NCBI GenBank assembly: GCA_964611655.1
Contig: CAZTAY010000002.1
Location: forward strand, 1 to 53,633
DNA from: an uncultured Eubacteriales bacterium
GTDB lineage: Bacteria > Bacillota > Clostridia > Lachnospirales > CAZTAY01
DNA: 53,633 nt
Reading direction: 5' to 3'
The notes under the pieces are model-generated. The model was given only the letters and a program-made list of their open reading frames with translations. It had not been told where the DNA came from and ran no database searches. Positions 6,930 to 32,875 of the stretch are shown here, one piece after another; position 1 is the first letter of the stretch; the number at the start of each line of letters is the position of its first letter. The position numbers and the translations under genes are program-made.

Positions 6930-7048
6930 TGGGTTGCCTCCTGATAAATATTAGGGGTTTATATTAGTTAAATGTTTAAGATAATTACGGCTGAATAGAT
7001 TTTCCGTAATAAACCTTAAAGCATCTAACTTAGTTTTATTATTTCAAA

Positions 7049-9343: not shown

Positions 9344-9502
9344 TATTTTCTCCTTAATAGAGTTATTTAGAATTATTTTACTATAAAAAACAAATAAAAA
9401 AATTAAATTTGAAAAAATGACATAAAGTTGTAATAATCTTTACTAGAATATATAGTCATGTTATAATAATATTCAACAAAAAAATCGAGGAGTGGAGTAA
9501 TA

Positions 9503-10807
9503 ATGACTTATTGGAATCCTTCGGCTGAGTGCATGGACAGAGAAGAAATGACTAAACTTCAAAACGAGAGATTGGTTAAGACTGTTGAGAAGATTTATCA
9601 TAATGTTCCCCATTATCGAGAAAAGATGCAAAAGATTGGACTTGAACCAGGCGACATAAAAGGAATACAGGATTTACATATGCTTCCATTTACAACTAAG
9701 CAGGATTTAAGAGATACATATCCCTTTGGCTTGTTTGCAAGCCCTATGAACGAAATTATTAGAATTCATTCCTCATCAGGCACAACTGGCAAACCAACTG
9801 TTGTGGGTTATACTAAAAATGACTTAGATGCATGGACAGAATGTTGCGCAAGAGTGCTGCATAATGCAGGAGCAACAAAAGATTCCGTAGTTCAGGTTTC
9901 ATATGGATATGGACTTTTAACAGGCGGATTGGGTATGCATTATGGCACAGAAAAAATTGGCGCAACTGTTGTACCAGCTTCAGGGGGAAACACCAGACGT
10001 CAACTGCAAATTTTAACAGATTTTGGTGTAGATATAATTTGCTGTACACCTTCTTATGCAAACTATATTTTTGAAGAACTGCTTGCTTCGGGCGTCACCA
10101 AGGACGATATTAAATTAAAGGCAGGCATATTCGGTGCTGAAATGTGGACTGAAAATATGCGTAAACAAATGGAAGAACTGCTTGATATTAAAGCGATTGA
10201 TATTTATGGATTAAGTGAAATAACAGGTCCTGGAGTCTCCTTTGATTGTCATGCAAGAAAGGGACTACATGTTAACGAGGACTATTTTATTCCTGAAATT
10301 ATAGACCCTGATACAGGAGAAGTTTTGCCATACGACGAAAGAGGCGAGCTTGTTTTCTCAACCATTTCCAAAGAAGGTTTTCCTCTTCTAAGATACCGTA
10401 CAAAGGATCTATCAACGCTTTCTCAAGAAAAATGTGACTGCGGCAGAACCCTTGTGAGAATGGGCAGGGTCATGGGACGCTCAGACGACATGCTTATTAT
10501 AAGGGGTGTTAATGTATTCCCTTCACAGGTGGAAAGCGTATTACTTGAAATGGGTGAAACCGCACCTCATTATTTATTGATTGTTGATAGAGAAGGTAAA
10601 ATGGACAATCTTGAAATTCAAGTTGAAATGAGCGAACAGCTTTTCTCTGATAAAGTAAAGAATATTGAAAGTCTTGAACATAAACTAAAACATTCAATTG
10701 AAAGCCTTTTAGGGGTAAGTGCTAAAATAAGGCTTGTGAACCCGAAAACCATTGAAAGAAGCGAAGGCAAGGCAAAAAGAGTAATAGACAAGCGTAAATT
10801 CGATTAG
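9503..10807 (+). CDS. paaK: Phenylacetate-CoA ligase family protein
   Basis: RIHSSSGTTGKPTVVGYT, DIYGLSEITGPGV, LRYRTKD, GRSDDMLIIRGVNVFPSQVE. Confidence 0.92.
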   Translation: MTYWNPSAECMDREEMTKLQNERLVKTVEKIYHNVPHYREKMQKIGLEPGDIKGIQDLHMLPFTTKQDLRDTYPFGLFASPMNEIIRIHSSSGTTGKPTVVGYTKNDLDAWTECCARVLHNAGATKDSVVQVSYGYGLLTGGLGMHYGTEKIGATVVPASGGNTRRQLQILTDFGVDIICCTPSYANYIFEELLASGVTKDDIKLKAGIFGAEMWTENMRKQMEELLDIKAIDIYGLSEITGPGVSFDCHARKGLHVNEDYFIPEIIDPDTGEVLPYDERGELVFSTISKEGFPLLRYRTKDLSTLSQEKCDCGRTLVRMGRVMGRSDDMLIIRGVNVFPSQVESVLLEMGETAPHYLLIVDREGKMDNLEIQVEMSEQLFSDKVKNIESLEHKLKHSIESLLGVSAKIRLVNPKTIERSEGKAKRVIDKRKFD

Positions 10808-10928
10808 AGCAATTCCATGTTTGATTTGCAATTATCTAAGCTGAAGATAGGTGGATTTGTGCCGTTTTAGGTGTATATAAATTGCTTACGTCAAACGGAA
10901 TTACTATATTAAAAAGGAGGTACTTTTT

Positions 10929-11360
10929 ATGTTAGTAAAACAAGTATCCGTTTTTTTGGAAAACTCTCAAGGCAATCTAGCAGAGGTCATGGAAATACTA
11001 GAAAGCAATAACATTAATACCAGAGCATTATCAATTGCGGAAACAAGCGATTATGGTATTTTAAGGCTCATTGTAAATGATTATGAAAAAGCTGTTAAAG
11101 CTCTTAAAGAAGCAAGCTTCCTTGTAAGCCTTACAGATGTAATAGCAATTGCGGCAGAAGACAAACCTGGTGGTCTTGTAAAACCATTGCAGTTGTTGCA
11201 TAAAAACAATATCTCTGTTGAATACATGTATGCTTTTATTGGCAAAAGTGATTCAACAGCATTCGTAATTCTTAGAATTGATGATACAGAAAAGGCAATA
11301 GCAGTGCTTGCAGAAGGTAATATAAATGTGCTTGAAGCAAACACCCTATATCAGATGTAA
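10929..11360 (+). CDS. Tandem ACT domain protein (usual paaK neighbour)
   Basis: QVSVFLEN..G.L, ALSIAETSDYGILRLIV, DKPGGL...L....ISVEYMYAF. Confidence 0.9.
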   Translation: MLVKQVSVFLENSQGNLAEVMEILESNNINTRALSIAETSDYGILRLIVNDYEKAVKALKEASFLVSLTDVIAIAAEDKPGGLVKPLQLLHKNNISVEYMYAFIGKSDSTAFVILRIDDTEKAIAVLAEGNINVLEANTLYQM

Positions 11361-11363
11361 GCC

Positions 11364-11951
11364 ATGAAAAACTTAGAAAATATTATGAACTTTATTCTTG
11401 AAATTGACAAACTAAAGAATGTTTTTAGAAGAACACCTATAATGAGCGGAGAGCGCCAAGAAAACGACGCGGAACATTCTTGGCATATAAGCGTTATGGC
11501 GCTCTTGCTTAAGGATTATTATAATAAACCTGTTGATATTGAAAAGGTAATTAAAATGCTTCTTATTCACGACCTTGTGGAGATATATGCTGGCGATACT
11601 TATGCTTACGATGAAAAAGCATACCATGATAAAGCAGATCGTGAACAATTAGCAGCAGAGAAATTATTCTCCATTCTTCCTAAAGCATATAAAGGTTGTT
11701 TTATGTCTTTGTGGGAAGAGTTTGAGGCAGACGAAACAAACGAATCCGAATACGCCTCTATTTTAGACAGAACACAACCACTTCTGCTAAATTATCATAA
11801 TGAGGGCAGACCGTGGATTAAACATGGTATCACTAAAACACAAGTGATTACCAGAGTCAGGAAGGTTATAGAACTTAATAACCCTTTATCAAAATATATA
11901 ATGGATATTATTAATGACTCTGTCTTAAAAGGTTATTTGATTGATAATTAA
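11364..11951 (+). CDS. HD domain hydrolase (5'-deoxynucleotidase-like)
   Basis: ENDAEHSWH and HDLVEIYAGD motifs. Confidence 0.88.
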   Translation: MKNLENIMNFILEIDKLKNVFRRTPIMSGERQENDAEHSWHISVMALLLKDYYNKPVDIEKVIKMLLIHDLVEIYAGDTYAYDEKAYHDKADREQLAAEKLFSILPKAYKGCFMSLWEEFEADETNESEYASILDRTQPLLLNYHNEGRPWIKHGITKTQVITRVRKVIELNNPLSKYIMDIINDSVLKGYLIDN

Positions 11952-12150
11952 AAAAGCATCTAAGGTTGACATAATATTTTACTCCAAGTTAATGCACAAG
12001 TTTCATTGTTGGCAGAAACCATTATCGGCTAGACAGTTAAAAAATATTTCAATTTTTAATTACATATTAAAAAGCTAATTACATATAGCCCCCCTTTCTT
12101 TAAAAACTGTCTCTTCGAAAATTTGTCTTTAAGAATGGAGGACAATCTAA

Positions 12151-14367
12151 ATGAAAAATTTAAAAATCCAATCAAAACTTATCGTTGGCTTTAGCGTCGT
12201 AATGTTATTTATGATTATTCTAGGTGCTTCTTCATTTATTAGCCTAAAAAACCTTGAAAGCATCATAGAGGATTATGATACAAAAACAGTTCCTAATTTA
12301 AATTATATTTGGGAAATTAAATATGAGACATTTTCGATTCAGCGTGCTGTCTTAAAAGCGATTCTTGCAACCACGGAGACAGATCTACAGAATTCCGTTG
12401 AGTCAACAAATGAAGATGCAAGAAAAATGAATGAGGCGTTGCAGAAATATAAAGAAAACATGCGGACAGATCCGGAGTTGTTTGAAAAAGTTGTATCAAT
12501 TTTATCGGGAGGCTCTCAAGCCCGTGGTAAGGTTCTTGAACTTTCAAAAGGTCTCACTCCTGAATCAAATGCTTTGGCTTATGAAGCTTTTAAAAAAGAA
12601 TATGAACCTGTTTTTGATGATTTTAGCGAAAATTTAGATATAATACATAATCAGGTTAACGATCTGGCTGCTAAGCAAAGACAAGCGACAGATGATACTA
12701 TAATCTGTATGCAGATATTATTGTTCTCTGTTTTGGTTGTTGCAATTATACTTACTATTATAGTGATTATTTTAATTACAAGATCGATTAAAAAGCCAGT
12801 TTTGGAGCTTGAGAGGGCTGCAAAAGAGTTGTCAGAAGGCAATGTTAACTGTAATATTTCATATAACAGCAAAGACGAGCTTGGACAGCTTGCTAATTCC
12901 ATTAGAACTGTAAATGGTACTATTTCATTGCTTATCGAAAAACTATCTGAATTAATAAATGAATATAATGAAGGTACAATAGAGGTAAGAATAGATGAAG
13001 AGCTATTTAGAGGGGAGTATAGGGAAGTTGCATCGGGAATTAATGCTTTGTGTAAAACCTTTGTAGAGGAAATGCTATCCATAATGGAAGCCTTTGGCAA
13101 AGTGGGAAATGGAAATTTTGAAACTACCCTTGTACAGTTCAAAGGTCAAAAAATAATAGCAAATGAAAATTTTGACTCTCTAAAAAATAATGTAAAATTA
13201 TTAAAGTCTGAAATAACTAGACTTATCGATGGCGCTATAAACGGACAATTAAACCTAAGAATCGATACAAACCAATATCAAGGCGGCTGGAAGGACATTA
13301 CTGAATCACTTAATAATTTGCTTGTATCGGTTAGTGAACCTATTGCAGAAGTCAATGAGGTTTTATCGGAATTGTCCAAAGGTAATTTTGATGTTCAGAT
13401 AGAAAATAATTTTAAAGGCAATTTTTTTGAAATGATGAACTCGCTGGATATTATGATTAAAGAGATAGGCTCTTATATTAATGAGATTACTGATAAACTA
13501 GAAGCCGTTGCAAAAGGCGATTTACGTGAGACAATTGAAAGTGAATATTTGGGTCAGTTTAACCTGATTAAAAATTCTATAAATAATATCAGTAGCGGAC
13601 TTAGAGATACCATTAACGAAATAAAATCTGCCGCTGAGAATGTTCTAGCAGGCGCAAATCAAATTTCTGATTCTGCAATGGACATTGCAGACGGTGCAAA
13701 CACACAGGCAAGCTCTGTGGAAGAATTAAATGCCTCCATTCTATCAATTAATGAGAAGGTCAGGCAGACGGCAGAAAAAACTCAAACAGCAAATGAATTT
13801 TCCCAAAACACAATGTCAAGTGCTAAAGAAGGAAACGAAGAAATGCATAAGATGCTTAAGTCCATGAACGATATTAAGGACGCATCAGGCAACATTGCAA
13901 AGATTATAAATGTTATTGATGATATAGCCTTTCAAACAAACCTCCTGGCGCTTAATGCTGCTGTTGAAGCTGCTCGTGCAGGTGAACAAGGCAAAGGCTT
14001 TGCGGTTGTTGCAGAGGAAGTTCGTTCTCTGGCTGGAAGAAGCTTAGCGGCAGCAAAGGACACTGCGATTTTAATTGAAGATACCATAAGTAAAGTAAAT
14101 GAAGGTACTGCTGCAGCAAATTATACAGCGGAATCTCTGAAAAAAATTGTTACAGACATAAACTCTGTTTCCGACGTAATCAATACCATTTTTTCGGATA
14201 CAAGAGAACAGTCAGAGGGAATTTCTCAAATTACACTAGGAATTAACCAAATTTCACAAGTTGTTCAAGTAAATTCTTCAACCTCTGAAGAATCGGCGTC
14301 TGCTGCACAAGAGCTGAATAGCCAATCTGAAATACTAGTACAAATGGTTGAGAATTTTAAAGTTTAG
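12151..14367 (+). CDS. Methyl-accepting chemotaxis protein (4HB sensor, multiple HAMP)
   Basis: Two TM helices, HAMP (SKDELGQLA), signalling motif [34 protein letters not shown]. Confidence 0.97.
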
Positions 14368-15021: not shown

Positions 15022-15065
15022 AAAGGGGCTGTATTGCTAATTAAAAAGCAATACAGCCCCTTTTT
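15022..15065. terminator. Bidirectional intrinsic terminator
   Basis: aaaggggctgtattgct / agcaatacagccccttt between convergent genes. Confidence 0.85.
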
Positions 15066-16462
15066 CATCTAAACCTTCCCCTTTTTTTGACACTAACTAA
15101 CTGACATACAACAGCTATAACCACCCCTGCAACTAACCCTATTGCAGGCCCTGCAATGGCTAATATGCTTCCAACAATGCCTGCAACTCCACGCTCTTCA
15201 GATGTGTTTAACATACCTAGGGCAATGTAAAAACATGCAAATGACTGTATCATAAGAGTAAGTGACATGGACAGGGGCAGTATTGGCTGTATCAGAGCTA
15301 TAAGAGGCATTATAAAACAACAGACAGCCTTTGTTAGGTTAAAGGTTGCAGTACCGCCAATGATTGAATACATTGCCCTACTGCCTTTATATCGCTCAAC
15401 AACAGTGACGGTCATAGCTGACCATAAAGGTCCTGACATTGTAATCGTAGGTGCAAACAAGGATTCTGCTAAATTACGCAGTCCTGTCAAAATATTAGTT
15501 TTATTTGAGTTTATCTGGATTTTTTCGTCTTTTCTTACGGAAGCAGCATCATACAGTAGTTGTTCACCAGCAACAACATCACCAAAAGCTATTATATATG
15601 TTATGATTGCCATTGGTACTGCTTGTATCAAAATTTCTAACGGCGGAAAACCTATACCCATCATACTAAAATTATTATTCACCCATTTAAGACCCGGCAA
15701 AGGATTAAAAATAAGTCCATCCTGTAAAGAAATAACTGGCAAGGGAAGTTCGCCTGTTGCAGCGCCTACAAGGTATCCTGCAAACAGTGCGGGAACAAAA
15801 CCTGCTTTTGTTAGTATTCCCACAAGCCCTCCCGGTTCGCCTTCTTTAATCTCTCTGAAACCCTTAGAAAATAGTAAGAATAGAGACACCAAAACACCGG
15901 TTGAAAAAGCAAAAGGCATTTTTGCAAAGCCTATTCCTCCAAGTTCCCCAGTAGCAAAACCATAACGTCCGATTACTGCGCTAATACCTGCTCCCATTAA
16001 TACACCAGCTTTAATTGAGTTTGGAGTAATACGAACAAGTTTTCCGGCAAGCTTTGATATGCCAAGAACCAAGAATATAACAGCAAGCAAAAACCCCAAT
16101 GATATTAAAGCGTGGATTCTATCGGTGCCTTCAAATGCCAGCAAGAATGTAGTTATTAAAGGGATTGCAGGGGTAATCCATCCACCGATTAACACGTCTC
16201 CAAATAGCTGATGGATACAGTAAAGACATTCATGAACAATTATAATTGAAAGAGCGACTGCAAATGGCAGACCGAATATATTTTCTAAGTAAGCGGTTGC
16301 TGAAACTCCTGTAACGAAAACAAAGCAAGCCTGAATAACTTCTGGAATTTCAATTTGATAATGAATGATTGGAAAACGTAATTTATAAGCCTTTAACCCC
16401 GGAATGGGTATATAAGGCTGTTCGCCTCCTTCTTCTCTCCTTGCGGTTGGCAGACTTAGCAA
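15065..16462 (-). CDS. Uncharacterised polytopic permease (DUF3360-like, NCS2-related), paralog A
   Basis: Many TM helices; LFGDVLIGGWITPAIPL, YIIAFGD, GPLWSAM; TTG start after GAGAGGGGG. Confidence 0.8.
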   Translation of the reverse strand: MLSLPTARREEGGEQPYIPIPGLKAYKLRFPIIHYQIEIPEVIQACFVFVTGVSATAYLENIFGLPFAVALSIIIVHECLYCIHQLFGDVLIGGWITPAIPLITTFLLAFEGTDRIHALISLGFLLAVIFLVLGISKLAGKLVRITPNSIKAGVLMGAGISAVIGRYGFATGELGGIGFAKMPFAFSTGVLVSLFLLFSKGFREIKEGEPGGLVGILTKAGFVPALFAGYLVGAATGELPLPVISLQDGLIFNPLPGLKWVNNNFSMMGIGFPPLEILIQAVPMAIITYIIAFGDVVAGEQLLYDAASVRKDEKIQINSNKTNILTGLRNLAESLFAPTITMSGPLWSAMTVTVVERYKGSRAMYSIIGGTATFNLTKAVCCFIMPLIALIQPILPLSMSLTLMIQSFACFYIALGMLNTSEERGVAGIVGSILAIAGPAIGLVAGVVIAVVCQLVSVKKRGRFR

Positions 16463-20442: not shown

Positions 20443-20734
20443 GTTTGCCTCCCCATAACCTGTATTTTATAACCTGACACCTATTCAACCCATCATTAAT
20501 TATTAAAAGTATAACATTGCTATATTTAATTTTCAATCGTGATTTGAGGATCTGTACTTCATACATGATTGTCATTTAAAACTGTTGCTTGTAATATTGA
20601 CACAAACATGACACAACTTTAAGCGTGATATAAGTTATAATAATACAAACTTAAAGTGGTGTGAGTTTTCATAAATGTTAGATAAAGTTATATCCACATT
20701 ATTTTAAGTTATTAAAACTTAGGAGTGATATTTA

Positions 20735-21070
20735 ATGAAAAAATTACAATTCGATATTACAACAGAAAAGAAAGAAATTGAAATTAACGGCAAAGTTTTT
20801 CAAATCTTAAAATCTGATGCTGATATTTTAGAAAAGGCGGCAGATTTAACTGACAGCTTTGAAAATATGAAAGACAAAAATGTAAAAGAAATTGCTTCGG
20901 CAATTAAAAGTGCAATTATGTTTACAGATGAGATTTTAGGAGATGGAGCTGTTAAAGAGATTACGAATAACCAGCCAGTCGGACTTGTTAAAATGCTTCA
21001 AATAATGAATGGAGTATGTCAAGCAGTGGTGGAAGAATATGGACTTGGACTAAACGCAAAATATGAGTAA
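20735..21070 (+). CDS. Putative tail assembly chaperone (gpG-like)
   Basis: 111 aa, KEIEINGKVF, DEILGDGAVKEI; position directly before Gp15-like and tape measure genes; RBS AGGAGTG. Confidence 0.65.
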   Translation: MKKLQFDITTEKKEIEINGKVFQILKSDADILEKAADLTDSFENMKDKNVKEIASAIKSAIMFTDEILGDGAVKEITNNQPVGLVKMLQIMNGVCQAVVEEYGLGLNAKYE

Positions 21071-21674
21071 GTACGCAGCATATAAAGCTCCTGAATTCTA
21101 TCTCTGGCAGTCTGAGGACAAGTCTTTTCCAAGAGTTTTGTACATTGACTCAAAAGAATACCCCATAAATTCGGATTTCAGGGTTATGCTGAAAATATTT
21201 CATATGCTTAACGACAATGAGGTAGTGGAAAGACATAAACTTGGACTTTTATGTAAATGGTTCTACGCTGCAGAAATTCCTGATGAACCATATTCAGTAT
21301 TTACTGAATTTTCATTGGGAAAGAGTGTTGGAAAAGGTGAAGAACCCGTAAAAATGATTAAACAATTTGACTTTGACTTTGACGCAAAAGAAATATATGC
21401 AAGCTTTTTAAAAGACTATGGTTTGTCATTAGTTAAAGAACCTTTTATACATTGGTATGAATTTAGGATACTTATGCAAAATCTGTCTCCTGAATCTCCA
21501 ATAAACAGAAAAATACAGGCAAGATTTTTAGAGCTTGATGGTCTAAAGGGAAAGGCATTGTATCAAGCTCAGCAAATCAAAGAATCAGTAGCATTGCCCA
21601 TAAGCTATAGTAAGAAAGAATTACAGGAAAATTCTGATTTTGAAGATGAATGGGGAAATGTTGGTTTAATTTAA
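21063..21674 (+). CDS. Bacteriophage Gp15-like protein (tail chaperone region)
   Basis: EYPINSDFRVMLK, FDFDFDAKEIYASFLKDYGL.L..EPFIHWYEF..L..NL, typical of the Gp15 family; overlaps upstream stop by 8 bp. Confidence 0.8.
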   Translation: MSKYAAYKAPEFYLWQSEDKSFPRVLYIDSKEYPINSDFRVMLKIFHMLNDNEVVERHKLGLLCKWFYAAEIPDEPYSVFTEFSLGKSVGKGEEPVKMIKQFDFDFDAKEIYASFLKDYGLSLVKEPFIHWYEFRILMQNLSPESPINRKIQARFLELDGLKGKALYQAQQIKESVALPISYSKKELQENSDFEDEWGNVGLI

Positions 21675-21841
21675 AATTTACTAATTATAAGTCCACAAAA
21701 AAGTTTTATTAAAGTGAATTAAAAGTATAAACGGTTTGCCTTAATTGTAATAAACAAATGGCAAACCTTATGCAATTTGATTTTAATTAAAATAGAAATT
21801 AAATACAGAATAAAGTCTGTTAACTGCGAAAGGAGGTTTTT

Positions 21842-24800
21842 ATGCAGCAAGATATATTAATTACGGCAAGCTTAGATATGAATGCTTTTGAACAGGCAAT
21901 TAGCCAAATAACAGATACACTAAACTCCGCAATGAGTTCTGCTATGGTGTCTGTTTCGTCTGATTCTGAAAGAATGACATTTTCCATTGGTAAGGCATTT
22001 AGCGGACTAGGCACAAGTTTAAAAGAAAGCGAAGCTCCTTTTAATAAATTTGAGTCAATGATAGCATCAACAGGGAATAGTTTTGTAGATGCATCAGACG
22101 GAACAAAAGAGCTTGGTGGTCAGATGCAAGAGCTTAATTCAGCCCTTAATCCTCTAAGTGCCACCTTTGCAGGTCTTTTATTGACATTTGGAATGATTTC
22201 AAAAGCAAACGAAACGTTGAAAAATGAAATGTCCGGTGCATGGGACAGTATAAAAAGAAGTATAGAGAACGTGGCTTTGTCTATAAAACCAGACTCATTT
22301 AACCAAGAAATAAATATCACGGCAAAGCTTGATGTTGGAGAACTAGAACAATCTATTGTTAGTTTATCGGATACAATAAAACAGTCCATGTCAGAAAGTC
22401 AAGAGGTTGTTGCAAAAGATTCTGAGAATATGAAAGGCTCGTTAACTACAATGGCAACAAATATATTGGATGTGCCAGGCAAAATTCTTTCATTTATGGA
22501 TCAAATGGGTGAAGTAGGTGGAACAATTAGCAATTATGGTGATAATTTTATTGCTTTAGGCGATAAAATGGGCAAATTAGGGGGTCCTTTTAGCTTTCTT
22601 GGAACTATGGCTAAAGGTGCAGGAGAGGCGTTTACTGGTTTATCAGGAGGAGCATCCGGTCTCGGAGGTGCATTTTCAAGTCTTGCAACCCTTATAAATC
22701 CTGTTACATTAATTGTTGGTACTCTGGCAGTAGCTTTTGTTCATCTTTGGGAATCAAATGAGGAGTTTAGAGAAAATATTATACAGTCTTGGAATAATAT
22801 CAAGGAAGGAATCCAAAAAATTGTTACGGCAATAAGCGAAAGTCCTGCTTTTAAAGCATTTGTTGATTACATAATGAAAGTTTGGGAACCCATAGAAAGC
22901 TTTGCTAAGGTTCTGTTTGAAAATATTTTTAAGGTTGTAGAGGAGTGTGTAAACCTGGTATTGTCTTTGGTTGAAGGCGATTGGCAAGGGGTTTGGGATT
23001 CATTCTGCAACATTTTAGGCGGAATAGGCGAAATAATAGAAGCTGGCTTAAATGGGGCGATAGATTTAATTCTAGGAATCTTTGGCTTATCCAGAGACAG
23101 CATTTTTGAAATATGGAACGGAATAGTAACATTTTTCAGTGATATATGGGGAAATATAGTCACCATGGCCGGAGAAATCTGGGGAGGTATAGTAAGCTTC
23201 TTTGGTGGGCTGTGGGATGGAATAAGTACTGCTATATCAGAAGCATGGGCAGCCATAACAAGCTTTTTCAGTGAAATGTGGGGAGGAATAGTAGCCAGTG
23301 CCGGAGAAATCTGGGGAGGCATATTAGACTTTTTTGGAGGACTGTGGGATGGAATAAGCACAGCCGCAACAGAAGCATGGGCAACCATAACAAGCTTTTT
23401 CAGTGAAATGTGGGGAGGAATAATAGCAAGTGCAGAAGAAATCTGGGGAGGAATATTAGACTTCTTTGGAGGATTGTGGGATGGAATAAGCACAGCCGCA
23501 ACAGAAGCATGGACAACCATAACAAACTTCTTTAGTGGAATGTGGGGAGGAATTAGCAAAAGTGCAGAGGAGATATGGGGAGCTATTGCAAGTTTTTTCA
23601 CCGGCTTATGGGAAGGTATAAAAACAAAAGCATCAGAAATCTGGGGTAGTATATCAGGTTTTTTCACAGGGATATTTGATGGAATTAGTAGAAGTGCAAC
23701 TGAAATATGGGGCAAGATATCATCCTTCTTAAGTGGCTTGTGGGGTGGAATAAGCACAAAGGCAACTGAAATTTGGAATGGTATTAAAGAAAGCATTGAA
23801 GGTATTGTAACTAATCTAGTGAATGGGGTTATTGGTTTTTTTCAAACACTTCCAGGAGAAATTATAAAAATAGGCGGTCAAATAATTTCCGGATTATGGG
23901 AGGGGATTTCAGCTTCTATAGGCTGGTTGATGGATCAAATCAATGGGTTCTTGAACACAGTGAAAGAAATATTCTCATTCAGCTTTGAAATTAATTCTCC
24001 TTCTAAATGGGCAAGGCGAATTGGAGCTTTTGTAACAGAGGGTCTTGCAAACGGTTTAGAAGAAGAAAAAAGCTCGGTTTTAGGAGCAGCAAATGGAATT
24101 GCTGATGAAGCCCAAAGTGCATTGTTAAGATTAAAAGATATGGATTATTCTGTTGGTGATATAGAACAGCCTAGCTTAAGCGGTGGAATCAATCTTGAGG
24201 CAGAAGCTTATACACAGGAAGAGTCTCGTAGGATGAGAGAAGAGCATTACATTAAGCTTTTGGAGATGCAAGATGACTACCAAGAAGAGGTATCTGCTAA
24301 AGATGAAAAGCACATCAATAAGCTTTTAGTAAATCTAAATGAGTATCTAATGGCTGGCTTGGAGTTAAAAGCTCAAGCTTCCGCAGAAGAGTATAATCTT
24401 ATTGAGGAAACTAACGAAAGAATTTTATTTATGCTTACGGCTTATTCTAGTAGATGGTTAGATGTTGGTGTATTGTTAATGAATAAATTACTGGAAGGGC
24501 TAAGGAGCAGGATGTCAGATGTTGAGACATTAATAAGCCAGCTTAGGAGAAAACTGGACACTCTTTCTAGCCTGCAAATGAGTGCAAGTGTTCCTATGTA
24601 TGGAGAAGGGGGAATTGTTACATCTCCGCATCTTGCAATAGTAGGGGATGTACCTGAAGCAATAATTCCATTAAATCAGCTAAAAAATATTAGTGAATTA
24701 GTCTCTAGCACACCTTCCTACTCAATTCCAACAGTAAACCAGATAAGCGATAATAGGAAGGAAGTTACTGTTAATCAGTATAATACCATAAATCAACCAT

Positions 24801-24868
24801 GTAAAAGCCCTGCTGAATTAGCAAGAGAAATTAGGCATGTTGCAAAGGAATTGGCGTTCCAAGTTTAA
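21842..24868 (+). CDS. Phage tail tape measure protein
   Basis: HLWESNEEFRENI, Trp-periodic 11-residue repeats, INSPSK...G....GLANG, C-terminal GGIVTSPHLAIVGDVPEAIIPL; RBS AAAGGAGG. Confidence 0.92.
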   Translation: MQQDILITASLDMNAFEQAISQITDTLNSAMSSAMVSVSSDSERMTFSIGKAFSGLGTSLKESEAPFNKFESMIASTGNSFVDASDGTKELGGQMQELNSALNPLSATFAGLLLTFGMISKANETLKNEMSGAWDSIKRSIENVALSIKPDSFNQEINITAKLDVGELEQSIVSLSDTIKQSMSESQEVVAKDSENMKGSLTTMATNILDVPGKILSFMDQMGEVGGTISNYGDNFIALGDKMGKLGGPFSFLGTMAKGAGEAFTGLSGGASGLGGAFSSLATLINPVTLIVGTLAVAFVHLWESNEEFRENIIQSWNNIKEGIQKIVTAISESPAFKAFVDYIMKVWEPIESFAKVLFENIFKVVEECVNLVLSLVEGDWQGVWDSFCNILGGIGEIIEAGLNGAIDLILGIFGLSRDSIFEIWNGIVTFFSDIWGNIVTMAGEIWGGIVSFFGGLWDGISTAISEAWAAITSFFSEMWGGIVASAGEIWGGILDFFGGLWDGISTAATEAWATITSFFSEMWGGIIASAEEIWGGILDFFGGLWDGISTAATEAWTTITNFFSGMWGGISKSAEEIWGAIASFFTGLWEGIKTKASEIWGSISGFFTGIFDGISRSATEIWGKISSFLSGLWGGISTKATEIWNGIKESIEGIVTNLVNGVIGFFQTLPGEIIKIGGQIISGLWEGISASIGWLMDQINGFLNTVKEIFSFSFEINSPSKWARRIGAFVTEGLANGLEEEKSSVLGAANGIADEAQSALLRLKDMDYSVGDIEQPSLSGGINLEAEAYTQEESRRMREEHYIKLLEMQDDYQEEVSAKDEKHINKLLVNLNEYLMAGLELKAQASAEEYNLIEETNERILFMLTAYSSRWLDVGVLLMNKLLEGLRSRMSDVETLISQLRRKLDTLSSLQMSASVPMYGEGGIVTSPHLAIVGDVPEAIIPLNQLKNISELVSSTPSYSIPTVNQISDNRKEVTVNQYNTINQPCKSPAELAREIRHVAKELAFQV
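23171..23566 (+). repeat. Three near-identical 132-bp (44-aa) repeats within the tape measure gene
   Basis: Unit starts at 23171, 23303 and 23435; a degenerate fourth starts at 23567. Confidence 0.92.
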
Positions 24869-24906
24869 CAGATTTAATTTAATCTTGAGGGGGTTATAGG
24901 ATAGGA

Positions 24907-25977
24907 GTGAATACTGCAATGGTTCATGAAGATATTGAGATTATCGTTATAGATAAAAACTTTAAAAGGATAAAGGCTATTAAAAGTTTTAGTTCTTTGC
25001 AATGGAGGGAAAGATATTTTGGTTGCGGAGAATTTGAACTACATTGTGATAAACGTTTTTTAGAACCTCTTTTTGAAGGCGAATATATATTCAGAAAAAA
25101 TAAAAACTATATGGGGATTATAGAATATCGTTTGTTCGACAATATAGAAAATAAAGTGGTTGTTAAAGGAAGATTTTTAGAGTCAATTCTTGAGGATAGA
25201 ATTCTTAGAAGTCAGGAAACATACTCTGGAAAGGCCGAGGATATTTGCAGAAGCCTTGTAAATGACTTCTGTATTAATTCTAATCCTATTGCTAATCTGG
25301 TTTTAGGCAATTACAACGGTTTAGGCTCTGAGATGCAAATACAAAATTACGGAAGAAACATTTATGAAGTAATAACGGATATACTAAATCAGCAAGAGCT
25401 ATCCTTTCGCATAAAATATGACCTAACTTCAAAGAATTTAGCTTTTGAAGTCTTTCAAGGTTTGGATAGAACGAAAAATCAACACCAAAACGGTTGGTGC
25501 GTTTTTTCTTCATCTTTTTTCAATCTTTTAGACGAAAAATACGAAAGTTCAAACTATATTAAAAATTTTGCATATGTTATTGGTAAGGATAAAAATGACA
25601 GAGATTATGTAGTTTCCGTTGATAACTCAAATGGCGATAAGATAAGGGAAATTCAAATAGACGCTGGTGATATAAAATGGAACAGCAATCTTTCGGAAGC
25701 ACAATTCGCTAAATGTTTGCATGACAGAGGATTGGAGAAGCTGGCTGAATATAATATTGCTGAGACGGTCGAATGTGATATTGACGTATATAAAACCTCA
25801 AAATTTGAATTAGGTGACAAATGCACATACGTTCAAAAAGAAATTGATTTAATAGCAGAGGGCAGGGTAACTGAGATACTTGAGGTGATTGAAGCTAATG
25901 GTGTTAAAACAAGGGTTACCCTTGGGAAAGAACAGTTAAGTGTAGTACAAAAGATGAAAAGAGGTTCAATGGTATAG
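24907..25977 (+). CDS. Siphovirus Gp37-like (ReqiPepy6 type) tail-tip hub protein
   Basis: FSSLQWRERYFGCGEFELH, VKGRFLESILEDR, FEVFQGLDRT, KNFAYVIG, RGLEKLAEY, FELGDKCT. Confidence 0.85.
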   Translation: MNTAMVHEDIEIIVIDKNFKRIKAIKSFSSLQWRERYFGCGEFELHCDKRFLEPLFEGEYIFRKNKNYMGIIEYRLFDNIENKVVVKGRFLESILEDRILRSQETYSGKAEDICRSLVNDFCINSNPIANLVLGNYNGLGSEMQIQNYGRNIYEVITDILNQQELSFRIKYDLTSKNLAFEVFQGLDRTKNQHQNGWCVFSSSFFNLLDEKYESSNYIKNFAYVIGKDKNDRDYVVSVDNSNGDKIREIQIDAGDIKWNSNLSEAQFAKCLHDRGLEKLAEYNIAETVECDIDVYKTSKFELGDKCTYVQKEIDLIAEGRVTEILEVIEANGVKTRVTLGKEQLSVVQKMKRGSMV

Positions 25978-26253
25978 TGATTTAATGTCTACTACTAACT
26001 TGAAAACCGCTAAACACAATAAAATAAGCTTATCTACAACCTGCTACTTGTGTCGTGATAACTATAATTTGTAACAATTTTCTGGTTGTGGGTGGTTAAA
26101 TATTAATTGTTTTACAATAATAAGTTAAGTTGGTAATCTGTTATTGTAAAGTATACTAAAGATTTTAGGTTAAGAAATTTAAAATGTTTTAAAATTTTGT
26201 TGAAAACTGCCAAAAGCGAGGTGCCTTGGCTAAGGTGAAAAGGAGGTTTTAAC

Positions 26254-27696
26254 ATGCTTATGTTCCCAAGTGCGAGGCGTGTAGACGGTGAAGAACAACC
26301 TTTTATACCCATTCCGTTTGCAAAGTCCTTTAAAATGCGTTTCCCATTGATTCATTGGGAAATAGAAGTACCTGAACTGATACAGGCTGCGGTTGTGTTT
26401 GTAACCGGTGTATCTGCAACTGCATATTTGCAGGATATTTTTGGATTACCCTTTGCAGTTGCTCTTTCAATTGTAATTGTCCATGAATGTCTGTATTGCT
26501 TGCACCAATTGTTTGGAGATGTTTTAATAGGTGGTTGGATTACACCTGCTGTACCTTTGATTACCACATTTTTATTAACTTTTGAAGGTAATGATCGAAT
26601 CTACGCACTTATATCTATGGGATTTCTGTTGTCAATAATATTCTTTGTTCTTGGAATAACAGGACTTGCCGGGAAGCTGGTAAAGGTTACGCCAAACTCC
26701 ATAAAAGCAGGCATATTAATTGGGGCAGGCGTAAGCGCTGTTATTGGGCGTTACGGTTTTGCATCAGCAGCTGCTAACGGCGTTGGATTTGCAAAGATGC
26801 CTATAGCTTTTTCCTTTGGTGTATTAATTTCACTGTTCCTTCTTTTCTCAAAAGGTTTCAGAGAAATGAAAGAGGATGGCAATAAAGGAATTGTTAGCTT
26901 GCTGGCAAAAGCAGGCTTTGTGCCGGCTCTCGTTGTCGCATACATAATTGGAGTATTTGCCGGAGAGCTGGCAATACCTTCGATTTCTTTAAGTGAAGGA
27001 ATAATATTTAATCCAATTCCGGGGCTGGCATGGGTAAATCAAAACTTTAGTATGCTTGGTATTGGATTCCCTCCAATGGAAATTTTAATTCAAACAATTC
27101 CAATGGCTATTGTTACATATATCATAGCATTTGGAGATATCATTGCAGGGGAACAGCTTCTTAATGAGGCTGCAGTAATTCGTACTGATGAAAAAATACA
27201 GATTGACACAAATAAAACAAATATCTTAACTGGTATCCGTAACTTAATAGAAAGTCTTTTCTCTCCAACGGTTACAATGTCAGGTCCTTTATGGTCGGCA
27301 ATGACTGTTACGGTTGTGGAAAGGTACAAAGGCAGTAAATCAATGTATTCGATTATCGGAGGCGCAGGAACATTCAACCTTTTTAAAGCAATCTTTTGTT
27401 TTGTTATTCCTCTGGTAGCGTTAGTACAGCCAATTCTACCGCTTTCAATGTCACTGACCCTTATGATTCAGTCATTTGCATGTTTTTATATTGCATTTGG
27501 TATGCTTAAAACATCAGAAGAACGTGGTGTTGCAGGGGTTGTAGGCGGAATACTTGCAATAGCAGGACCTGCTGTTGGCCTTACTGCAGGAGTTGCAGTT
27601 GCAGTTGTTTGTCAGGTGCTTGGGGCAAAAAAAGTGAAACCTGAAGTTAAAATTAACGTTGAGAAGGATGAAATACTTGAAACTGAAAAAGAATAA
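26254..27696 (+). CDS. Uncharacterised polytopic permease (DUF3360-like), paralog B
   Basis: Colinear with paralog A (LFGDVLIGGWITPAVPL, GPLWSAMTVTVVERYKGS); RBS AAAGGAGG. Confidence 0.85.
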   Translation: MLMFPSARRVDGEEQPFIPIPFAKSFKMRFPLIHWEIEVPELIQAAVVFVTGVSATAYLQDIFGLPFAVALSIVIVHECLYCLHQLFGDVLIGGWITPAVPLITTFLLTFEGNDRIYALISMGFLLSIIFFVLGITGLAGKLVKVTPNSIKAGILIGAGVSAVIGRYGFASAAANGVGFAKMPIAFSFGVLISLFLLFSKGFREMKEDGNKGIVSLLAKAGFVPALVVAYIIGVFAGELAIPSISLSEGIIFNPIPGLAWVNQNFSMLGIGFPPMEILIQTIPMAIVTYIIAFGDIIAGEQLLNEAAVIRTDEKIQIDTNKTNILTGIRNLIESLFSPTVTMSGPLWSAMTVTVVERYKGSKSMYSIIGGAGTFNLFKAIFCFVIPLVALVQPILPLSMSLTLMIQSFACFYIAFGMLKTSEERGVAGVVGGILAIAGPAVGLTAGVAVAVVCQVLGAKKVKPEVKINVEKDEILETEKE

Positions 27697-27962: not shown

Positions 27963-28736
27963 ATGATTTTTAATTGTAAATGCGAGGATAAAACCGAAGG
28001 TATGAATGGTTTTCTTAATGGAGAAACAAACCAGTTTCAAATAACACAGGCAGTAATTTGTTGCTGTAATGACAAAAGTGATAGTGAAGAAAAAGATAAT
28101 AATGAAGATAGTAATAATGACAATGTAGAATGCACTTATTCAGTGGATGTAACTGTTGGAATAGGTGGAGATTTTGAAACACTGCAACAGATGTATGACT
28201 GGAGTAACACAATATCAAGCTTTGTGATAAAGGTTACTTTAGTTAGTGATTTAATTAATAATACAGGACATGTTTTAATTGTTGGAAATGGAAAACGTTA
28301 CACAATAAATGGAAATGGGTATACTATCACTCAAAATGCATCTGATGCAAAATATGTGATTGTAGTAACTAATAACTCCTATCTGGAAATTGAGAGTATC
28401 ACTTTAGAAAATTTTTCAAAAGATACTGATGCTAGTTGTCTGGTTGTATCATCAATCTCTACTTGTAGGCTTATAAATAATAATTTTCCAATAACATTTA
28501 TTAATAATAATCAAGTAAGTTCTTATGCTGTGTTGTGTCAAAGAAATTCAAGACTTTTATTTGCAAAACAGGGAAATATAAATATACATAATAGCAAAAT
28601 TGGTATTTACGCATTATATAATTCAACTATAACAATGCCGGCAGGTGGTGCAGTTAATTTCAACAATGTAACTACACAATTTAGTCCTGCGAAAAATACT
28701 TTAAGTAATGGTGGTAGTTTTATTAATGTTCTATAA
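27963..28736 (+). CDS. Cys-rich N-terminus plus putative right-handed beta-helix (tail-fibre-tip-like), copy 1
   Basis: CKC...ICCC, acidic linker, VTVGIGGDFETLQQ, Asn/Ile-rich beta repeats, ends PAKNTLSNGGSFI. Confidence 0.8.
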   Translation: MIFNCKCEDKTEGMNGFLNGETNQFQITQAVICCCNDKSDSEEKDNNEDSNNDNVECTYSVDVTVGIGGDFETLQQMYDWSNTISSFVIKVTLVSDLINNTGHVLIVGNGKRYTINGNGYTITQNASDAKYVIVVTNNSYLEIESITLENFSKDTDASCLVVSSISTCRLINNNFPITFINNNQVSSYAVLCQRNSRLLFAKQGNINIHNSKIGIYALYNSTITMPAGGAVNFNNVTTQFSPAKNTLSNGGSFINVL

Positions 28737-28920
28737 TGGTTATGTTAGTAGATTAATTCTCTTTCCCTTGCTACAAAAGTAATCTAGTACACAGGACAAA
28801 CTAAAACTGTAAGAATATATGATTTGCTTATGACTTAATTAGCTTATTGAATTAGGAAATATTACATAGGAGAAAGTAAATAACAGGATTTGAAATACTA
28901 AAAAAATATGGAGGTTATAT

Positions 28921-29697
28921 ATGGATTTTAAATGTATATGCAACGATCAAAACGTAGATATGGAAGGTTGTTTTAATGGGGGAACAAACCAATTTCAAAT
29001 TTCAAAAGCAGTCATTTGTTGCTGTAATGATAAATATGATTTTGAAGATAAAGATGATAATGAAGAAAATAAAGATGATAATGAAAATAAAAAATGCACT
29101 TATTCAGTAGATGTAACAGTGGGGACTGGTGGAGATTTTGAAACATTGCAACAGATGTATGACTGGAGTAATACTATATCAAGTTATCAAATAACTGTTA
29201 CATTAGTAAGTGATTTAACAAATGATGTAGGAGTTGCCTTATATGTTAGTAATGGAAAACGTTACATTTTAAATGGAAATGGGCATACTATCACTCAGAA
29301 TGCATCTGACACAAATTACGCAATTGCGGTATATAATTACACCTATTTATCTTTAGAGAATATAACAATTAAGAATATGTCAAATATCACTAGCGCAATT
29401 TGTCTGTTCGTATCAACTAACGCTACTTGCCGGATTTTTAATGAGACATACCCTATAACATTTATAAATAACAATCAAACATATTCTATTGCTATAACTG
29501 GTCAAAGAAATGCAAACATTTTATTTGGCCATCTGGGAACTATAAATATGCTAAATTGCAAAACAGGTGTTTACGCAATATATAATTCAAGAATAACTAT
29601 GTCAACAGGTGGGACGATTAATTTCAACAATGTTACTACACAATATATTCCTGCTAAAAATACATTAAGCAGTGATGGAAGTTTTATTTATGCATAG
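28921..29697 (+). CDS. Cys-rich plus beta-helix protein, copy 2
   Basis: Paralog of copy 1; GDFETLQQMYDWSNTISS identical. Confidence 0.8.
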   Translation: MDFKCICNDQNVDMEGCFNGGTNQFQISKAVICCCNDKYDFEDKDDNEENKDDNENKKCTYSVDVTVGTGGDFETLQQMYDWSNTISSYQITVTLVSDLTNDVGVALYVSNGKRYILNGNGHTITQNASDTNYAIAVYNYTYLSLENITIKNMSNITSAICLFVSTNATCRIFNETYPITFINNNQTYSIAITGQRNANILFGHLGTINMLNCKTGVYAIYNSRITMSTGGTINFNNVTTQYIPAKNTLSSDGSFIYA

Positions 29698-29901
29698 TCT
29701 ACTACTATAATTGTTTGAAATGTAACAATGTAAGGAGTTAATTCTTTATTACTTGATTAAAAGTTTATGTACATATCAAAAAACAAACTACAATTGTAAG
29801 AATATCGATTTGCTTATATCTTCAGTTAGTTTATTAAAAAACATAGGCATAAGCAAATAAACCTGACTTCAAAAATACTAAAGAATATATGGAGGTAATA
29901 T

Positions 29902-30672
29902 ATGATTTTTAATTGTAAATGTGACGATAAAACCAAAGGTATTGACGGTTGTATAAATGGGGAAACAAACCAGTTTCAAATTGCAAAAGCAATAATTTGT
30001 TGCTCTAAAAATAAATGCCATAATAAAGCTGACAATGACAATGATAATGAAAATAACACATGCACTTGCACTTATTCAGTTGCTGTAACTGTTGGGACAG
30101 CTGGAGATTTTGAAACACTTCAACAGATGTATGACTGGAGTAATACTATATCAAGTTATGAAATAAAGGTTACTTTAGTTAGTGATTTAACAAATGATGA
30201 AGGACATGTTTTATTTGTAATGAATGGAAAACGTTACATATTAAATGGTAATGGTTATACTATCACTCAAAACGCTACTAATGTAAATTATGCGATAGTA
30301 GTATCTACTTACACCTATTTAGCTTTGGAGAATATAACAATTAAGAACTTATCAAACACAACAAGTACTATGTGTCTGTGGGTATCAACTAATTCTATTT
30401 GCAGGATTATGAATGAAAAATATCCAATAACATTTATTAATGGCAATCAGACAAATTCTACTGCAGTATTTTGTCACAAAAATGCAAATATATTATTTGA
30501 GCATCTTGGTACCACAAATATTCAAAATTCAAGTACCGGTGTGCTTTCATCGCTAAATTCAGCAATAACAATGTCATCAGGTGTGGCACCTAATTTCACC
30601 AATGTAACTACTCAATATACCCCTGCTAAAAATACATTAAGCAGTGATGGAAGTTTTATTTTCGCACCGTAA
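29902..30672 (+). CDS. Cys-rich plus beta-helix protein, copy 3
   Basis: Paralog of copies 1 and 2. Confidence 0.8.
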   Translation: MIFNCKCDDKTKGIDGCINGETNQFQIAKAIICCSKNKCHNKADNDNDNENNTCTCTYSVAVTVGTAGDFETLQQMYDWSNTISSYEIKVTLVSDLTNDEGHVLFVMNGKRYILNGNGYTITQNATNVNYAIVVSTYTYLALENITIKNLSNTTSTMCLWVSTNSICRIMNEKYPITFINGNQTNSTAVFCHKNANILFEHLGTTNIQNSSTGVLSSLNSAITMSSGVAPNFTNVTTQYTPAKNTLSSDGSFIFAP

Positions 30673-30812: not shown

Positions 30813-31463
30813 ATGAAGTATAACAATAAACAAGGTTTGCAAACCTGTTTAACAGGGGTTGGTTTATTACAAAACATAATTCACTATATTCCCAAAGAAA
30901 AAAAGGTGGTGTTAAGCTTGCAAGATGATGTTTTAATAAAAAGACTTCTCGAAGGAGAACAAGAAGCATTTGCTTTTATGATTGACAAATACAGCAAACT
31001 GTTGTGGTTAGTGGTTGGGGGAGTTATAGGGAATATTGGAACAAAGGAAGATATTGAAGAGTGTATAAGTGATGTTTATGTTCAGGTTTGGAAAAACCCT
31101 AGGGCTTTTAACAATCAAAAAGGAACTCTAAAAACCTATTTAGCAATTATAGCAAAGAGTAAGGCTCTTGATAAATACAGGAAACTGTCTAAATTAAAGG
31201 TGATCGAGATTGATGAGGCTATTACTGCACCTGACGATGATTTGCTTGACTACATAGTTGAGAAAGAAAAGAGCAAGGCTCTTTATTCAGTATTAGAGAC
31301 ATTAAAAGAACCAGATAAAGAAATACTAATTCGCCGCTACTTTTTTGATGAAAAGCCGTCAAGAATTGCTGAAAAAATTTCGATTCCAGTTAAGGAAGTG
31401 GAAAACAGATTATATAAAAGCAAGCTAAAATTAAGAAAAATATTAAGTAGCAGGGAGGTTTAG
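30813..31463 (+). CDS. ECF sigma-70 factor (true start probably ~30907-30917)
   Basis: LIKRLLEGEQEAF, EDIEECISDVYVQVW, LKTYLAIIAKSKALD, region 4 IRRYFFDEKPSRIAEK. Confidence 0.9.
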   Translation: MKYNNKQGLQTCLTGVGLLQNIIHYIPKEKKVVLSLQDDVLIKRLLEGEQEAFAFMIDKYSKLLWLVVGGVIGNIGTKEDIEECISDVYVQVWKNPRAFNNQKGTLKTYLAIIAKSKALDKYRKLSKLKVIEIDEAITAPDDDLLDYIVEKEKSKALYSVLETLKEPDKEILIRRYFFDEKPSRIAEKISIPVKEVENRLYKSKLKLRKILSSREV

Positions 31464-31465
31464 AG

Positions 31466-32875
31466 GTGGATAATAAAAATTTAATTTCAGAGCTTTCAGA
31501 TGAACAAATTGATGCATTGTTAACCTATGTACCACTGTTTGAGGAGCAGAATAAAGAAAATATTAAAGCTATTGCATTTGAAAAAATTAGTAATAATAGA
31601 GCAAATAATAAAAGATTTTCTTATAAAAAATCCGCATTGTCTGCACTTATTGCGGTTGCAATATTAGTTTCAAGTAGTTTGGTTGTAGCTGCTGCGTTAG
31701 GTGTTGATTTAGGACAAATTTTTAATTCGTTTTTTAATCCAGAAGTAGCGAATGTTATAGATGTAGAACAGATTGCAGAGCAAGAAGGAATTGAAATTAA
31801 ACTAATTTCAGCATATTCAGATGGAAGTCAAGCATATGCGATGCTTGAGATGAAAGATAGAAAAGGAAACAGACTATCTGATAACATGAAACTACTTTTT
31901 AGAAATAGTAACTACAATGCTTATTTATGCACGCCTATAGCCTATGATAAAGTAGAAAACAAGGCTGTGTTTGGAATTAAAATAATATGTCATCAGGAAA
32001 TTGAAGTAGGGGATTTAGTGCCTTTTAACGTAGAAAAAGTTTTATTAGATGTAGATGCTATTCAAGCAAGACCTATAAATTTTCCTTTATACAGTTTGGC
32101 GTTAGAAAAAGAAGTGATTAGCTATCAGCAGTGGGAGGAAGCGGCTTCTGACGGTGATATAGAATCAACAGGAGCAATAGCTGTTAGCGATGAAGTAAAT
32201 ATAGAAGAAATAGGCTTTTTGAAATTGGATGAAATTACTGCAACTCTACCGGGGGTTGATTGGGCTGTTGTTACTAACATAGGTTATGTTGATGGGTTGC
32301 TGCATATTCAATTAAAACGCACTGATGCTTATAACTTTGATTATAATTTTGGTTCTCTATTATTGCAGGACAGTTCTGGTGGAGAGGTTACACCTTTGCT
32401 AGATGTTGAAAAAGGTAATTATCAGGAGCTTGTGTTTAAAGTAGGAAGTATTGAAAAGCTCAAAAATATGAAGCTAACTAATACTGGATTGAACGCAAAA
32501 ACCGTTATATCAGGGCCGTGGAATCTGGACTTCACAATCAAGTCACAAGCAACCAAAAAATTCTTAACTATAAACTTGATAGATTCTCCTTATTTCAAAC
32601 AGCTTGATATAGAATGTTCACCTATGGCAACTTATATCAGGTTTTATGCTAAAGAGCAAACGGGCGAGCTTGAAGATGTAATCAAAATGGGCGATTATGT
32701 GGGGGCCTTTGATGAACCTTACCTAACTTTAAAAGATGGCTCTGAGATAAAGTTGTTGGTGGAGTCAAATATGTTTGATAATGTTGGCGGAACTGCGGAT
32801 TATAACAGTCCATACTTCCAACTCTCTGAACTAAAATCAATTACAGTTTGTGGAGTAGACTATAATTTTGAATAA
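31466..32875 (+). CDS. Anti-sigma factor (DUF4179-like)
   Basis: Directly follows the ECF sigma; single TM helix then EQEGIEIKLISAYSDG beta-rich extracellular domain. Confidence 0.75.
   Translation: MDNKNLISELSDEQIDALLTYVPLFEEQNKENIKAIAFEKISNNRANNKRFSYKKSALSALIAVAILVSSSLVVAAALGVDLGQIFNSFFNPEVANVIDVEQIAEQEGIEIKLISAYSDGSQAYAMLEMKDRKGNRLSDNMKLLFRNSNYNAYLCTPIAYDKVENKAVFGIKIICHQEIEVGDLVPFNVEKVLLDVDAIQARPINFPLYSLALEKEVISYQQWEEAASDGDIESTGAIAVSDEVNIEEIGFLKLDEITATLPGVDWAVVTNIGYVDGLLHIQLKRTDAYNFDYNFGSLLLQDSSGGEVTPLLDVEKGNYQELVFKVGSIEKLKNMKLTNTGLNAKTVISGPWNLDFTIKSQATKKFLTINLIDSPYFKQLDIECSPMATYIRFYAKEQTGELEDVIKMGDYVGAFDEPYLTLKDGSEIKLLVESNMFDNVGGTADYNSPYFQLSELKSITVCGVDYNFE

Follow-up and report, generated by a model that had tools for sequence, protein, structure and literature searches.

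Are four phage tail genes that stand by themselves between host genes a device that the cell still uses, or what is left of a prophage that has gone? This question is raised by positions 20735-25977 of contig CAZTAY010000002.1 (C2 in our numbering, assembly GCA_964611655.1), from an uncultured Eubacteriales bacterium. The contig (53.6 kb), which was analysed at its full length and is called here the window, belongs to a 2.56-Mb draft genome in 185 contigs, 90% complete and with 3.7% contamination. An earlier note, made from the letters of the sequence, had taken the four genes for a stand-alone tail-tip module, which implies a working or domesticated one. This implied reading is not supported: the nearest relative of the set lies in a complete prophage, the locus occurs in one genome only, and beyond the intactness of the genes we found nothing that speaks positively for it. 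In our reading, to which we give a probability of about 0.72, the four-gene set is a cryptic prophage remnant of the ordinary kind, with an unusually tidy shape.

Four tail genes in phage order and their relatives

The region 20735-25977 holds four full-length siphophage tail genes on the same strand and in phage order, that is chaperone-like, Gp15, tape measure and hub. They are listed below with protein lengths in amino acids (aa), expect values (E) of the family matches and ribosome-binding sites (RBSs):

20735-21070, plus strand: chaperone-like protein, 111 aa; phrog_1061 (8e-05) as the sole family match; AGGAG RBS
21063-21674, plus strand: Gp15-family protein, 203 aa, the second presumed chaperone; PF06854 (2e-26) and phrog_706 (4e-30)
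21842-24868, plus strand: tape measure protein, 1008 aa; phrog_58 (6e-92) and about 20 other tape-measure PHROGs; AGGAGG RBS
24907-25977, plus strand: Gp37-family hub, 356 aa; PF14594 (2e-47, profile positions 2-370 of 370) and phrog_538 (7e-69)

The family matches and the full-length open reading frames (ORFs) agree with the earlier note on the presence of four intact genes in siphophage order. It was also right in counting three clear RBSs, which are AGGAG before 20735, AGGAGG before 21842 and GGATAGGAG before 24919, this last position being the ATG at which the database gene call of the hub begins (giving 352 aa); no obvious RBS was found before the Gp15 gene (21063).

The best match of all four genes is to one and the same complete prophage, locus L012 on Logan contig SRR29082274_584, which served as the main reference. 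Identities are 43%, 43%, 28% (C-terminus) and 50% in gene order, and the prophage encodes a scaffold, capsid, tube-position gene, chaperone, Gp15, tape measure, SPP1_Dit, Gp37, holin, amidase and integrase. Since all four genes match best in this complete prophage, the module may be regarded as a fragment of an L012-type phage and, judged by these alignments, its origin is in a complete-phage lineage. The chaperone-like protein aligns over residues 12-110 with a 110-aa protein that precedes Gp15 in L012, and the Gp15-family protein aligns with the L012 Gp15 (43% identity in both cases). The Gp15 gene and the chaperone-like gene overlap by 8 nt, with a frame relation that is also that of L012; across the window and its relatives this overlap is of 8-14 nt and the frame relation is shared. 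The tape measure aligns with that of L012 over its C-terminal 280 aa (28% identity), through the last residues, and the hub is 50% identical to the L012 protein P0002 and 37% identical to the Gp37 of a second locus, L014, on the 411-kb ENA contig k141_7756.

All homologues of the tape measure are distant (at most 44% identity, over part of the length). An old duplication links its residues 1-155 with residues 156-330, residues ~445-660 are made of the tandem repeats usual in tape measures, here of 44 aa each and rich in tryptophan and glycine (DNA 23123-23751, 132-bp period), and no PF10145 domain is detectable in it. The hub is of the short form, without a C-terminal extension, and ends within one residue of its homologue's end. 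An AlphaFold model built with 15 homologues has a mean predicted local distance difference test (pLDDT) score of 84 and adopts the Tal N-terminal, gp27-like fold. Foldseek matched this model to the diffocin baseplate, Mu gp44, the monocin tip chain L (FtbL; 9j1k_L, E 1e-14), Listeria prophage gp18 and the 80alpha baseplate, with E values from 1e-14 to 5e-19. These fold matches make the label of hub correct for the Gp37-like protein and, as far as the model goes, the Gp37-family protein of the window is a tail hub. The fold search was informative here, as a sequence search of the PDB with Gp37 gave no useful match; a literature search for PF14594 or Sipho_Gp37 found no papers.

Gene families, order and orientation are those of the Gp15/Gp37 siphophage tail modules, represented by L012, by Acutalibacter phage Fontainebleau (L001) and by Clostridium phage phiCD6356 (L002). 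Compared with these three phages, the window lacks the tube, the distal tail protein (Dit), the post-hub genes and the head, packaging, lysis and lysogeny genes. It also differs from modules of this type by the tape measure's duplicated N-terminal segment, by the lack of a detectable PF10145 and by an added spacer of 167 bp. The set shares features with cryptic prophage remnants: its nearest relatives lie in complete prophages, essential functions are missing and host genes stand on both sides, so that a few phage genes are left between host genes in a genome that carries other partial prophages as well.

How far the locus extends to other organisms was also explored. No other genome of the host's family was present in the collection searched, the nearest being only of the same order. 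The host's PNPase shares 70-73% identity with the enzymes of Defluviitaleaceae/Vallitaleaceae-like and unclassified Clostridia metagenome-assembled genomes and 61-66% with those of Lachnospiraceae, which makes the bacterium a Lachnospirales-like member of the Clostridia. Ten proteins of the region were looked up, host genes included, and 10/10 fall in singleton clusters. The closest Gp37 among 5.8 billion proteins is 50% identical to that of the window, and contig scans of other genomes, viruses and metagenomes did not find the tail-gene locus in any of the three. The earlier note had named two findings as telling against its own proposal. Of the first, the presence in one strain only is what we see; the second, a relative that carries the complete prophage at high identity, is seen only loosely, the identity being 43-50% and not high.

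Composition was tried as a marker of foreign origin and set aside as uninformative, the module being equal to the host average (35.8% GC, tetranucleotide distance at the 68th percentile). Such a composition is what a phage of this host would show, and it does not hint at any special origin.

Junctions and missing genes

What is absent from the locus was followed at its edges and at the spacers between its genes, none of which has a strand:

20443-20734: left junction, an AT-rich divergent intergenic stretch between a host gene for a 264-aa membrane protein resembling tetratricopeptide-repeat (TPR) proteins (minus strand) and the first phage gene
21675-21841: spacer between the Gp15 and tape measure genes, 167 bp, non-coding, with the hairpin GGTTTGCC..GGCAAACC
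24869-24906: Dit-less junction, 38 bp, which holds the hub RBS; the Dit gene is ~0.85 kb in relatives
25978-26253: right junction, non-coding, before a host permease gene (26254-27696)

In the left junction, promoter-like hexamers occur only at chance level. As the earlier note had stated, no tail tube gene stands ahead of the module: tblastn with all L012 and L014 prophage proteins gave no match upstream of 20771, and the tube or terminator proteins of L001, L002, L012 and L014 have no match in the window. With every L012 and L014 protein and an E cut-off of 1, tblastn likewise gave no match in the flanks to the tube gene, to Dit or to the genes downstream, and the right junction holds no remnants of downstream tail or lysis genes. 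Family-profile searches of the window ORFs found no head, packaging, lysis (holin, lysin) or integrase families, no repeat like those of phage attachment sites (att) flanks the module and no tRNA lies adjacent to it. In this respect the earlier note was accurate, since it had reported no capsid, portal, terminase, integrase or lysis gene and no att repeat in the window. The module comes without any regulator, lysis or fibre gene.

The lack of Dit in the 38-bp gap, also pointed out previously, was confirmed by comparison. Dit lies between the tape measure and Gp37 in 8/8 close contexts, which are L001, L002, L012, L014, the complete prophage morphogenesis regions L134 and L135, and C129 and C43, two other contigs of the window's own genome; the protein has ~280-316 aa in these eight. 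In 400 genomes of the same order, 30 Gp37 loci were compared: 25 have a Dit profile match no farther than 1.5 kb upstream (three of the five loci without a match have stored upstream sequence of less than 0.9 kb), and a long tape-measure-like ORF directly abutting Gp37 was seen in 0/30. Because Dit is present in all the close contexts and in most of the same-order loci, its absence from the window represents a loss. At this junction both neighbours keep their native ends in comparison with L012: the alignment of the tape measure runs through its last residues, and that of the hub begins at its first one. The 167-bp spacer is atypical too, given that the Gp15 and tape measure genes abut or overlap in L001, L012 and L014; its fold has a free energy of -31.8 kcal/mol (z -2.3).

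A probable course of events may be proposed. A temperate siphophage with a Gp15/Gp37-type tail module, of TP901-1/A118-like layout, would have been integrated between the host membrane-protein gene and the permease gene. Deletions would then have taken everything upstream of the chaperone genes, including lysogeny, replication, packaging, head and tube genes, the Dit gene from between the tape measure and the hub, and everything downstream of the hub, as fibres and lysis genes, leaving four full-length genes. These genes would at present be without function, and their intactness would reflect the short time elapsed since the deletions. The four genes are unable to build a tail or a tailocin: a tube subunit that could polymerise and a Dit ring that could nucleate the tube are both missing, and so are a receptor-binding protein and a holin and lysin for release.

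The genome holds other partial prophage pieces, so that acquisition and decay of prophages are ongoing in the lineage. Contig C99 carries genes for TerL, portal, minor head, capsid, tail completion, a tube-like 170-aa protein, chaperone and Gp15; at the position where the tape measure would start, it has a 198-aa lipoprotein-like ORF and then, where the contig ends, part of an ImmA-like metalloprotease gene (locus L051, 8753-10630). Contigs C129 and C43 carry tape measure, Dit, Gp37 and more. The Gp37 proteins of these pieces are 22-29% identical to that of the window and the Gp15 31%, BLASTP of the window chaperone and tape measure against the other prophage tail proteins of the genome gave no match, and tblastn found the window tape measure to be 22% identical to one on contig C14. 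Since identity is of only 22-31% or undetectable, these pieces are neither the missing parts of the module nor likely partners for mixed assemblies. The only tube-like and Dit genes of the genome lie inside other, divergent prophage fragments. Matches to the Dit families PF22768/PF05709 were found only on C129 and C43, in both cases inside tail modules, no orphan Dit exists elsewhere in the genome and the sole tube-like gene found, that of C99, sits in the operon of another prophage. Holin- and lysin-like matches are on other contigs (C43, C17, C72 and C77). The rest of the same prophage was not found elsewhere in the assembly at comparable identity, the other contigs carrying distant phage lineages.

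Two of these contigs showed features of their own. On C43 (locus L052), a tandem array of ~1.3 kb lies at ~4670-6050, between the tape measure (2036-4666) and Dit (6058-6975), with at least 12 copies of a ~97-bp unit and broken by an N scaffold gap. The unit holds the inverted repeat GGTTGCTTT...AAAGCAACC and the array has no unique spacers, hence it is not CRISPR-like. Contig C14 (27.6 kb, 44-47% GC) has a deviant tetranucleotide usage (99th percentile) and a tape-measure-like gene, and may be a recent acquisition or a binning contaminant.

It has to be considered whether the locus is an artefact of assembly or binning, that is, a chimeric contig or a collapsed minority deletion variant, in which case the real genome would carry a fuller prophage or none. 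The draft is fragmented, incomplete and slightly contaminated, and N-scaffolded gaps occur elsewhere in it, as on C43. However, the module lies in the middle of a contig of 53.6 kb without any N, its composition is identical to the genome mean, no junction repeat is common to other contigs and no related phage DNA exists elsewhere to cause a mis-join. Three independent mis-joins, all exactly at gene boundaries, would be needed, and we consider this explanation very improbable.

Intactness and the case for retention

Several observations weigh against the reading as a remnant and they are gathered here. The 5,022 coding nt of the module run without a stop or a frameshift, all four proteins keep their native N- and C-termini in alignment, and no signs of decay (stops, frameshifts, truncations or accelerated change) were found inside the surviving genes, 4/4 ORFs being full length. 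Gp37 retains 14/14 of the invariant residues of the family alignment and gives a confident hub model. In relative-rate counts of the window versus L012 (32/30, 36/27, 12/16, 16/16, 11/7 and 5/6), amino-acid change in the window lineage is no faster than in the intact prophage. If the genes evolved neutrally, all four would remain intact with a probability above 5% only up to ~0.2-0.6% divergence, a limit calculated for 5,022 nt with a nonsense share of 5.2% among possible substitutions and with the indel:substitution ratio taken, by assumption, as 0.05-0.2. Each of the four deletion breakpoints coincides with a gene boundary, as random cuts in a tight phage operon would rarely do. In addition, the two true pseudogenes of the window are badly fragmented while the tail genes are intact. 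One is a fragmented Acyl_transf_3 gene at ~8.2-9.44 kb (minus strand), in a stretch of 25% GC, with only the first ~60 profile positions in frame, and the other an IS630-type transposase split over two frames at ~51.88-52.2 kb (plus strand). The earlier note had described nearby dead genes as heavily broken; the breakage is real, but the two pseudogenes are not nearby, as they lie 11 and 26 kb away.

Most cryptic prophage remnants carry truncated or frameshifted genes. Compared with such typical remnants, the window differs in that its survivors are all full length, its breakpoints are at gene boundaries and one gene is precisely gone from the middle. Nevertheless, intactness and clean breakpoints are as compatible with purifying selection as they are with a very young remnant, and the apparent improbability of the intactness is inflated by the fact that the region was picked because it looked intact. 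As for the breakpoints, cuts at gene boundaries could arise if packed phage genes recombined at their RBS motifs, which are similar to one another.

Retention of the module under selection would account for the same observations. According to this explanation the cell uses the chaperones, the tape measure and the hub, and the loss of Dit is part of the design; the module might interfere, in a dominant-negative manner, with tail assembly of infecting phages whose tail genes are related, complement or exchange parts with the tails of resident prophages, or have its tape measure and hub act at the membrane. Four full-length ORFs, three of them with good RBSs, the four breakpoints at gene boundaries, the lack of rate acceleration relative to L012, the fragmented pseudogenes elsewhere in the window and the occurrence of a related tail module in a head-less, apparently domesticated state (L014, see below) are in its favour. 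On the other hand, both species and locus are singletons, and the set has no regulator, lysis gene, fibre, tube or Dit and so could not form any of the tail-derived machines known. Furthermore, the other tail genes of the genome are 22-31% identical or undetectable, which makes mixed assemblies unlikely, no known defence family matches (searches of the module with defence-family models gave none), and the 167-bp spacer between Gp15 and the tape measure, together with the absent Gp15 RBS, suggests a disturbed operon. Taking both sides into account, retention under selection is unlikely. A narrower version, in which the host keeps a minimal tail-derived module of two chaperones, tape measure and hub after shedding Dit and tube, appears rather improbable; possible uses would be a decoy initiation complex that poisons the tail assembly of incoming siphophages whose tail genes are related, or a membrane-active complex of tape measure and hub.

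Tailocins, neighbouring genes and what the set means

A headless tail may also be a tailocin, so the set was compared with the systems described. The model F-type tailocin, monocin, needs 13 structural genes within an 18-gene cluster, which includes the cap FtbF, the tube FtbG, the Dit FtbK, FtbM, the side fibres FtbN/FtbO/FtbP, regulators and a holin-lysin cassette (PMC11830787). Monocin is of the same broad TP901-1-like tail type, and the four genes of the window have their equivalents in its presumed chaperones FtbH and FtbI, its tape measure FtbJ and its hub FtbL; in the window, FtbF, FtbG, FtbK, FtbM, FtbN, FtbO, FtbP, the regulators and the holin-lysin cassette have no counterpart. Thus the window has neither the complete tail of an F-type tailocin (cap, tube, Dit and fibres) nor its lysis and regulatory genes, and the earlier note was correct that the set is smaller than any described F-type tailocin, monocin having 18 genes (PMC11830787).

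Two types of head-less loci found along the way are closer to tailocins. Like the window, L014 has Gp15, tape measure and Gp37 hub genes in a chromosomal setting without head genes; unlike it, L014 keeps a sigma-like regulator, a tube-position gene, Dit and a fibre. Its positions 4534-12788 encode a DUF722 sigma-like regulator, two small ORFs, a chaperone, Gp15, a 662-aa tape measure, SPP1_Dit, Gp37 and a Peptidase_S74 fibre, and GGDEF and RNase T genes flank the cluster. In appearance this is an F-type tailocin-like locus of a Clostridia genome. The second type, L016-L019, provides the best partial match to the window tape measure (27% identity over 66% of the query), and differs from the window in keeping a sigma-like regulator, a tube-position gene, a Dit-position gene, a 750-772-aa ORF, a holin and a lysozyme. 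These clusters lie beside leuS in mouse-gut and other metagenomes, carry no head genes and form a widespread conserved cluster, present in 77 blocks of the collection. Their order is sigma-70-like gene, holin, three small ORFs, GH25 lysozyme, a 726-729-aa tape-measure-like protein, a 127-130-aa protein, the 750-772-aa protein and further ORFs. L014 and L016-L019 are plausible tailocin loci, which the window set is not.

The other ORFs of the window belong to the host core chromosome (rho, pnp, nrdD/nrdG, chemoreceptors, transporters, extracytoplasmic function (ECF) sigma/anti-sigma factors and GroEL). The permease gene downstream of the module (26254-27696, plus strand) has an inverted paralogue at 15065-16462 (minus strand), with 75% amino-acid and 72-74% DNA identity. 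Both encode uncharacterised multi-pass membrane proteins without a Pfam or NCBIfam family, and they bracket 9.8 kb that contains a LysR regulator, an SSF symporter, a TPR-like membrane protein and the tail genes. A link of this inverted repeat to the phage junction was considered and rejected, since the duplication is old and reaches no farther than 13 bp upstream of the permease start codon.

Beyond the permease, three tandem paralogues of ~257 aa (27963-30672) lie on the same strand as the tail genes and are 61-68% mutually identical; they are followed by a gene for an ECF sigma factor and its anti-sigma gene at 30813-32875. The N-terminal ~58 aa of these proteins are Cys-rich and disordered, and the C-terminal 200 aa are modelled as a right-handed parallel beta-helix (pLDDT above 90). 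The tail genes might in principle be part of a larger domesticated tail system having these paralogues as tips, as the beta-helix fold is also used by phage tailspikes, a weak match to CBA120 TSP1 exists (E 0.26) and the genes are in tandem on the tail-gene strand. However, a host permease gene with its own RBS and a 75%-identical paralogue stands between them and the hub, pectin methylesterases come first among the structural matches (E 0.009 or worse), the fold being a generic one, and no PHROG, Pfam or NCBIfam match ties the paralogues to tails. They have only 6 remote homologues among 1.84 billion representative proteins, and the one homologue context retrieved is without tail genes. Moreover, there is no N-terminal tail-attachment domain, this place being taken by the Cys-rich, disordered residues 1-58, and Dit, the usual platform for fibre attachment, is missing. 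The link of the paralogues to the tail genes was rejected as unsupported, a generic beta-helix bearing no tail signature, and a larger system of this sort is hardly probable at all.

With regard to what the locus means, it is useful to know that nothing beyond intactness supports the claim that the module functions by itself. Were the reading as a minimal module true, it would describe a tail-derived system below any described tailocin in size and working without a tube. Most likely, the four-gene set belongs to a known kind, the cryptic prophage remnant, and is not a working device. As such a remnant it is one more case of phage gene debris in an uncultured Clostridia lineage and matters little, and its tidy shape, with four complete genes and one cleanly excised from the middle, is a small curiosity. 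If the same set were recurrent in related genomes, it would indicate a new use of tape-measure and hub proteins outside the tail.

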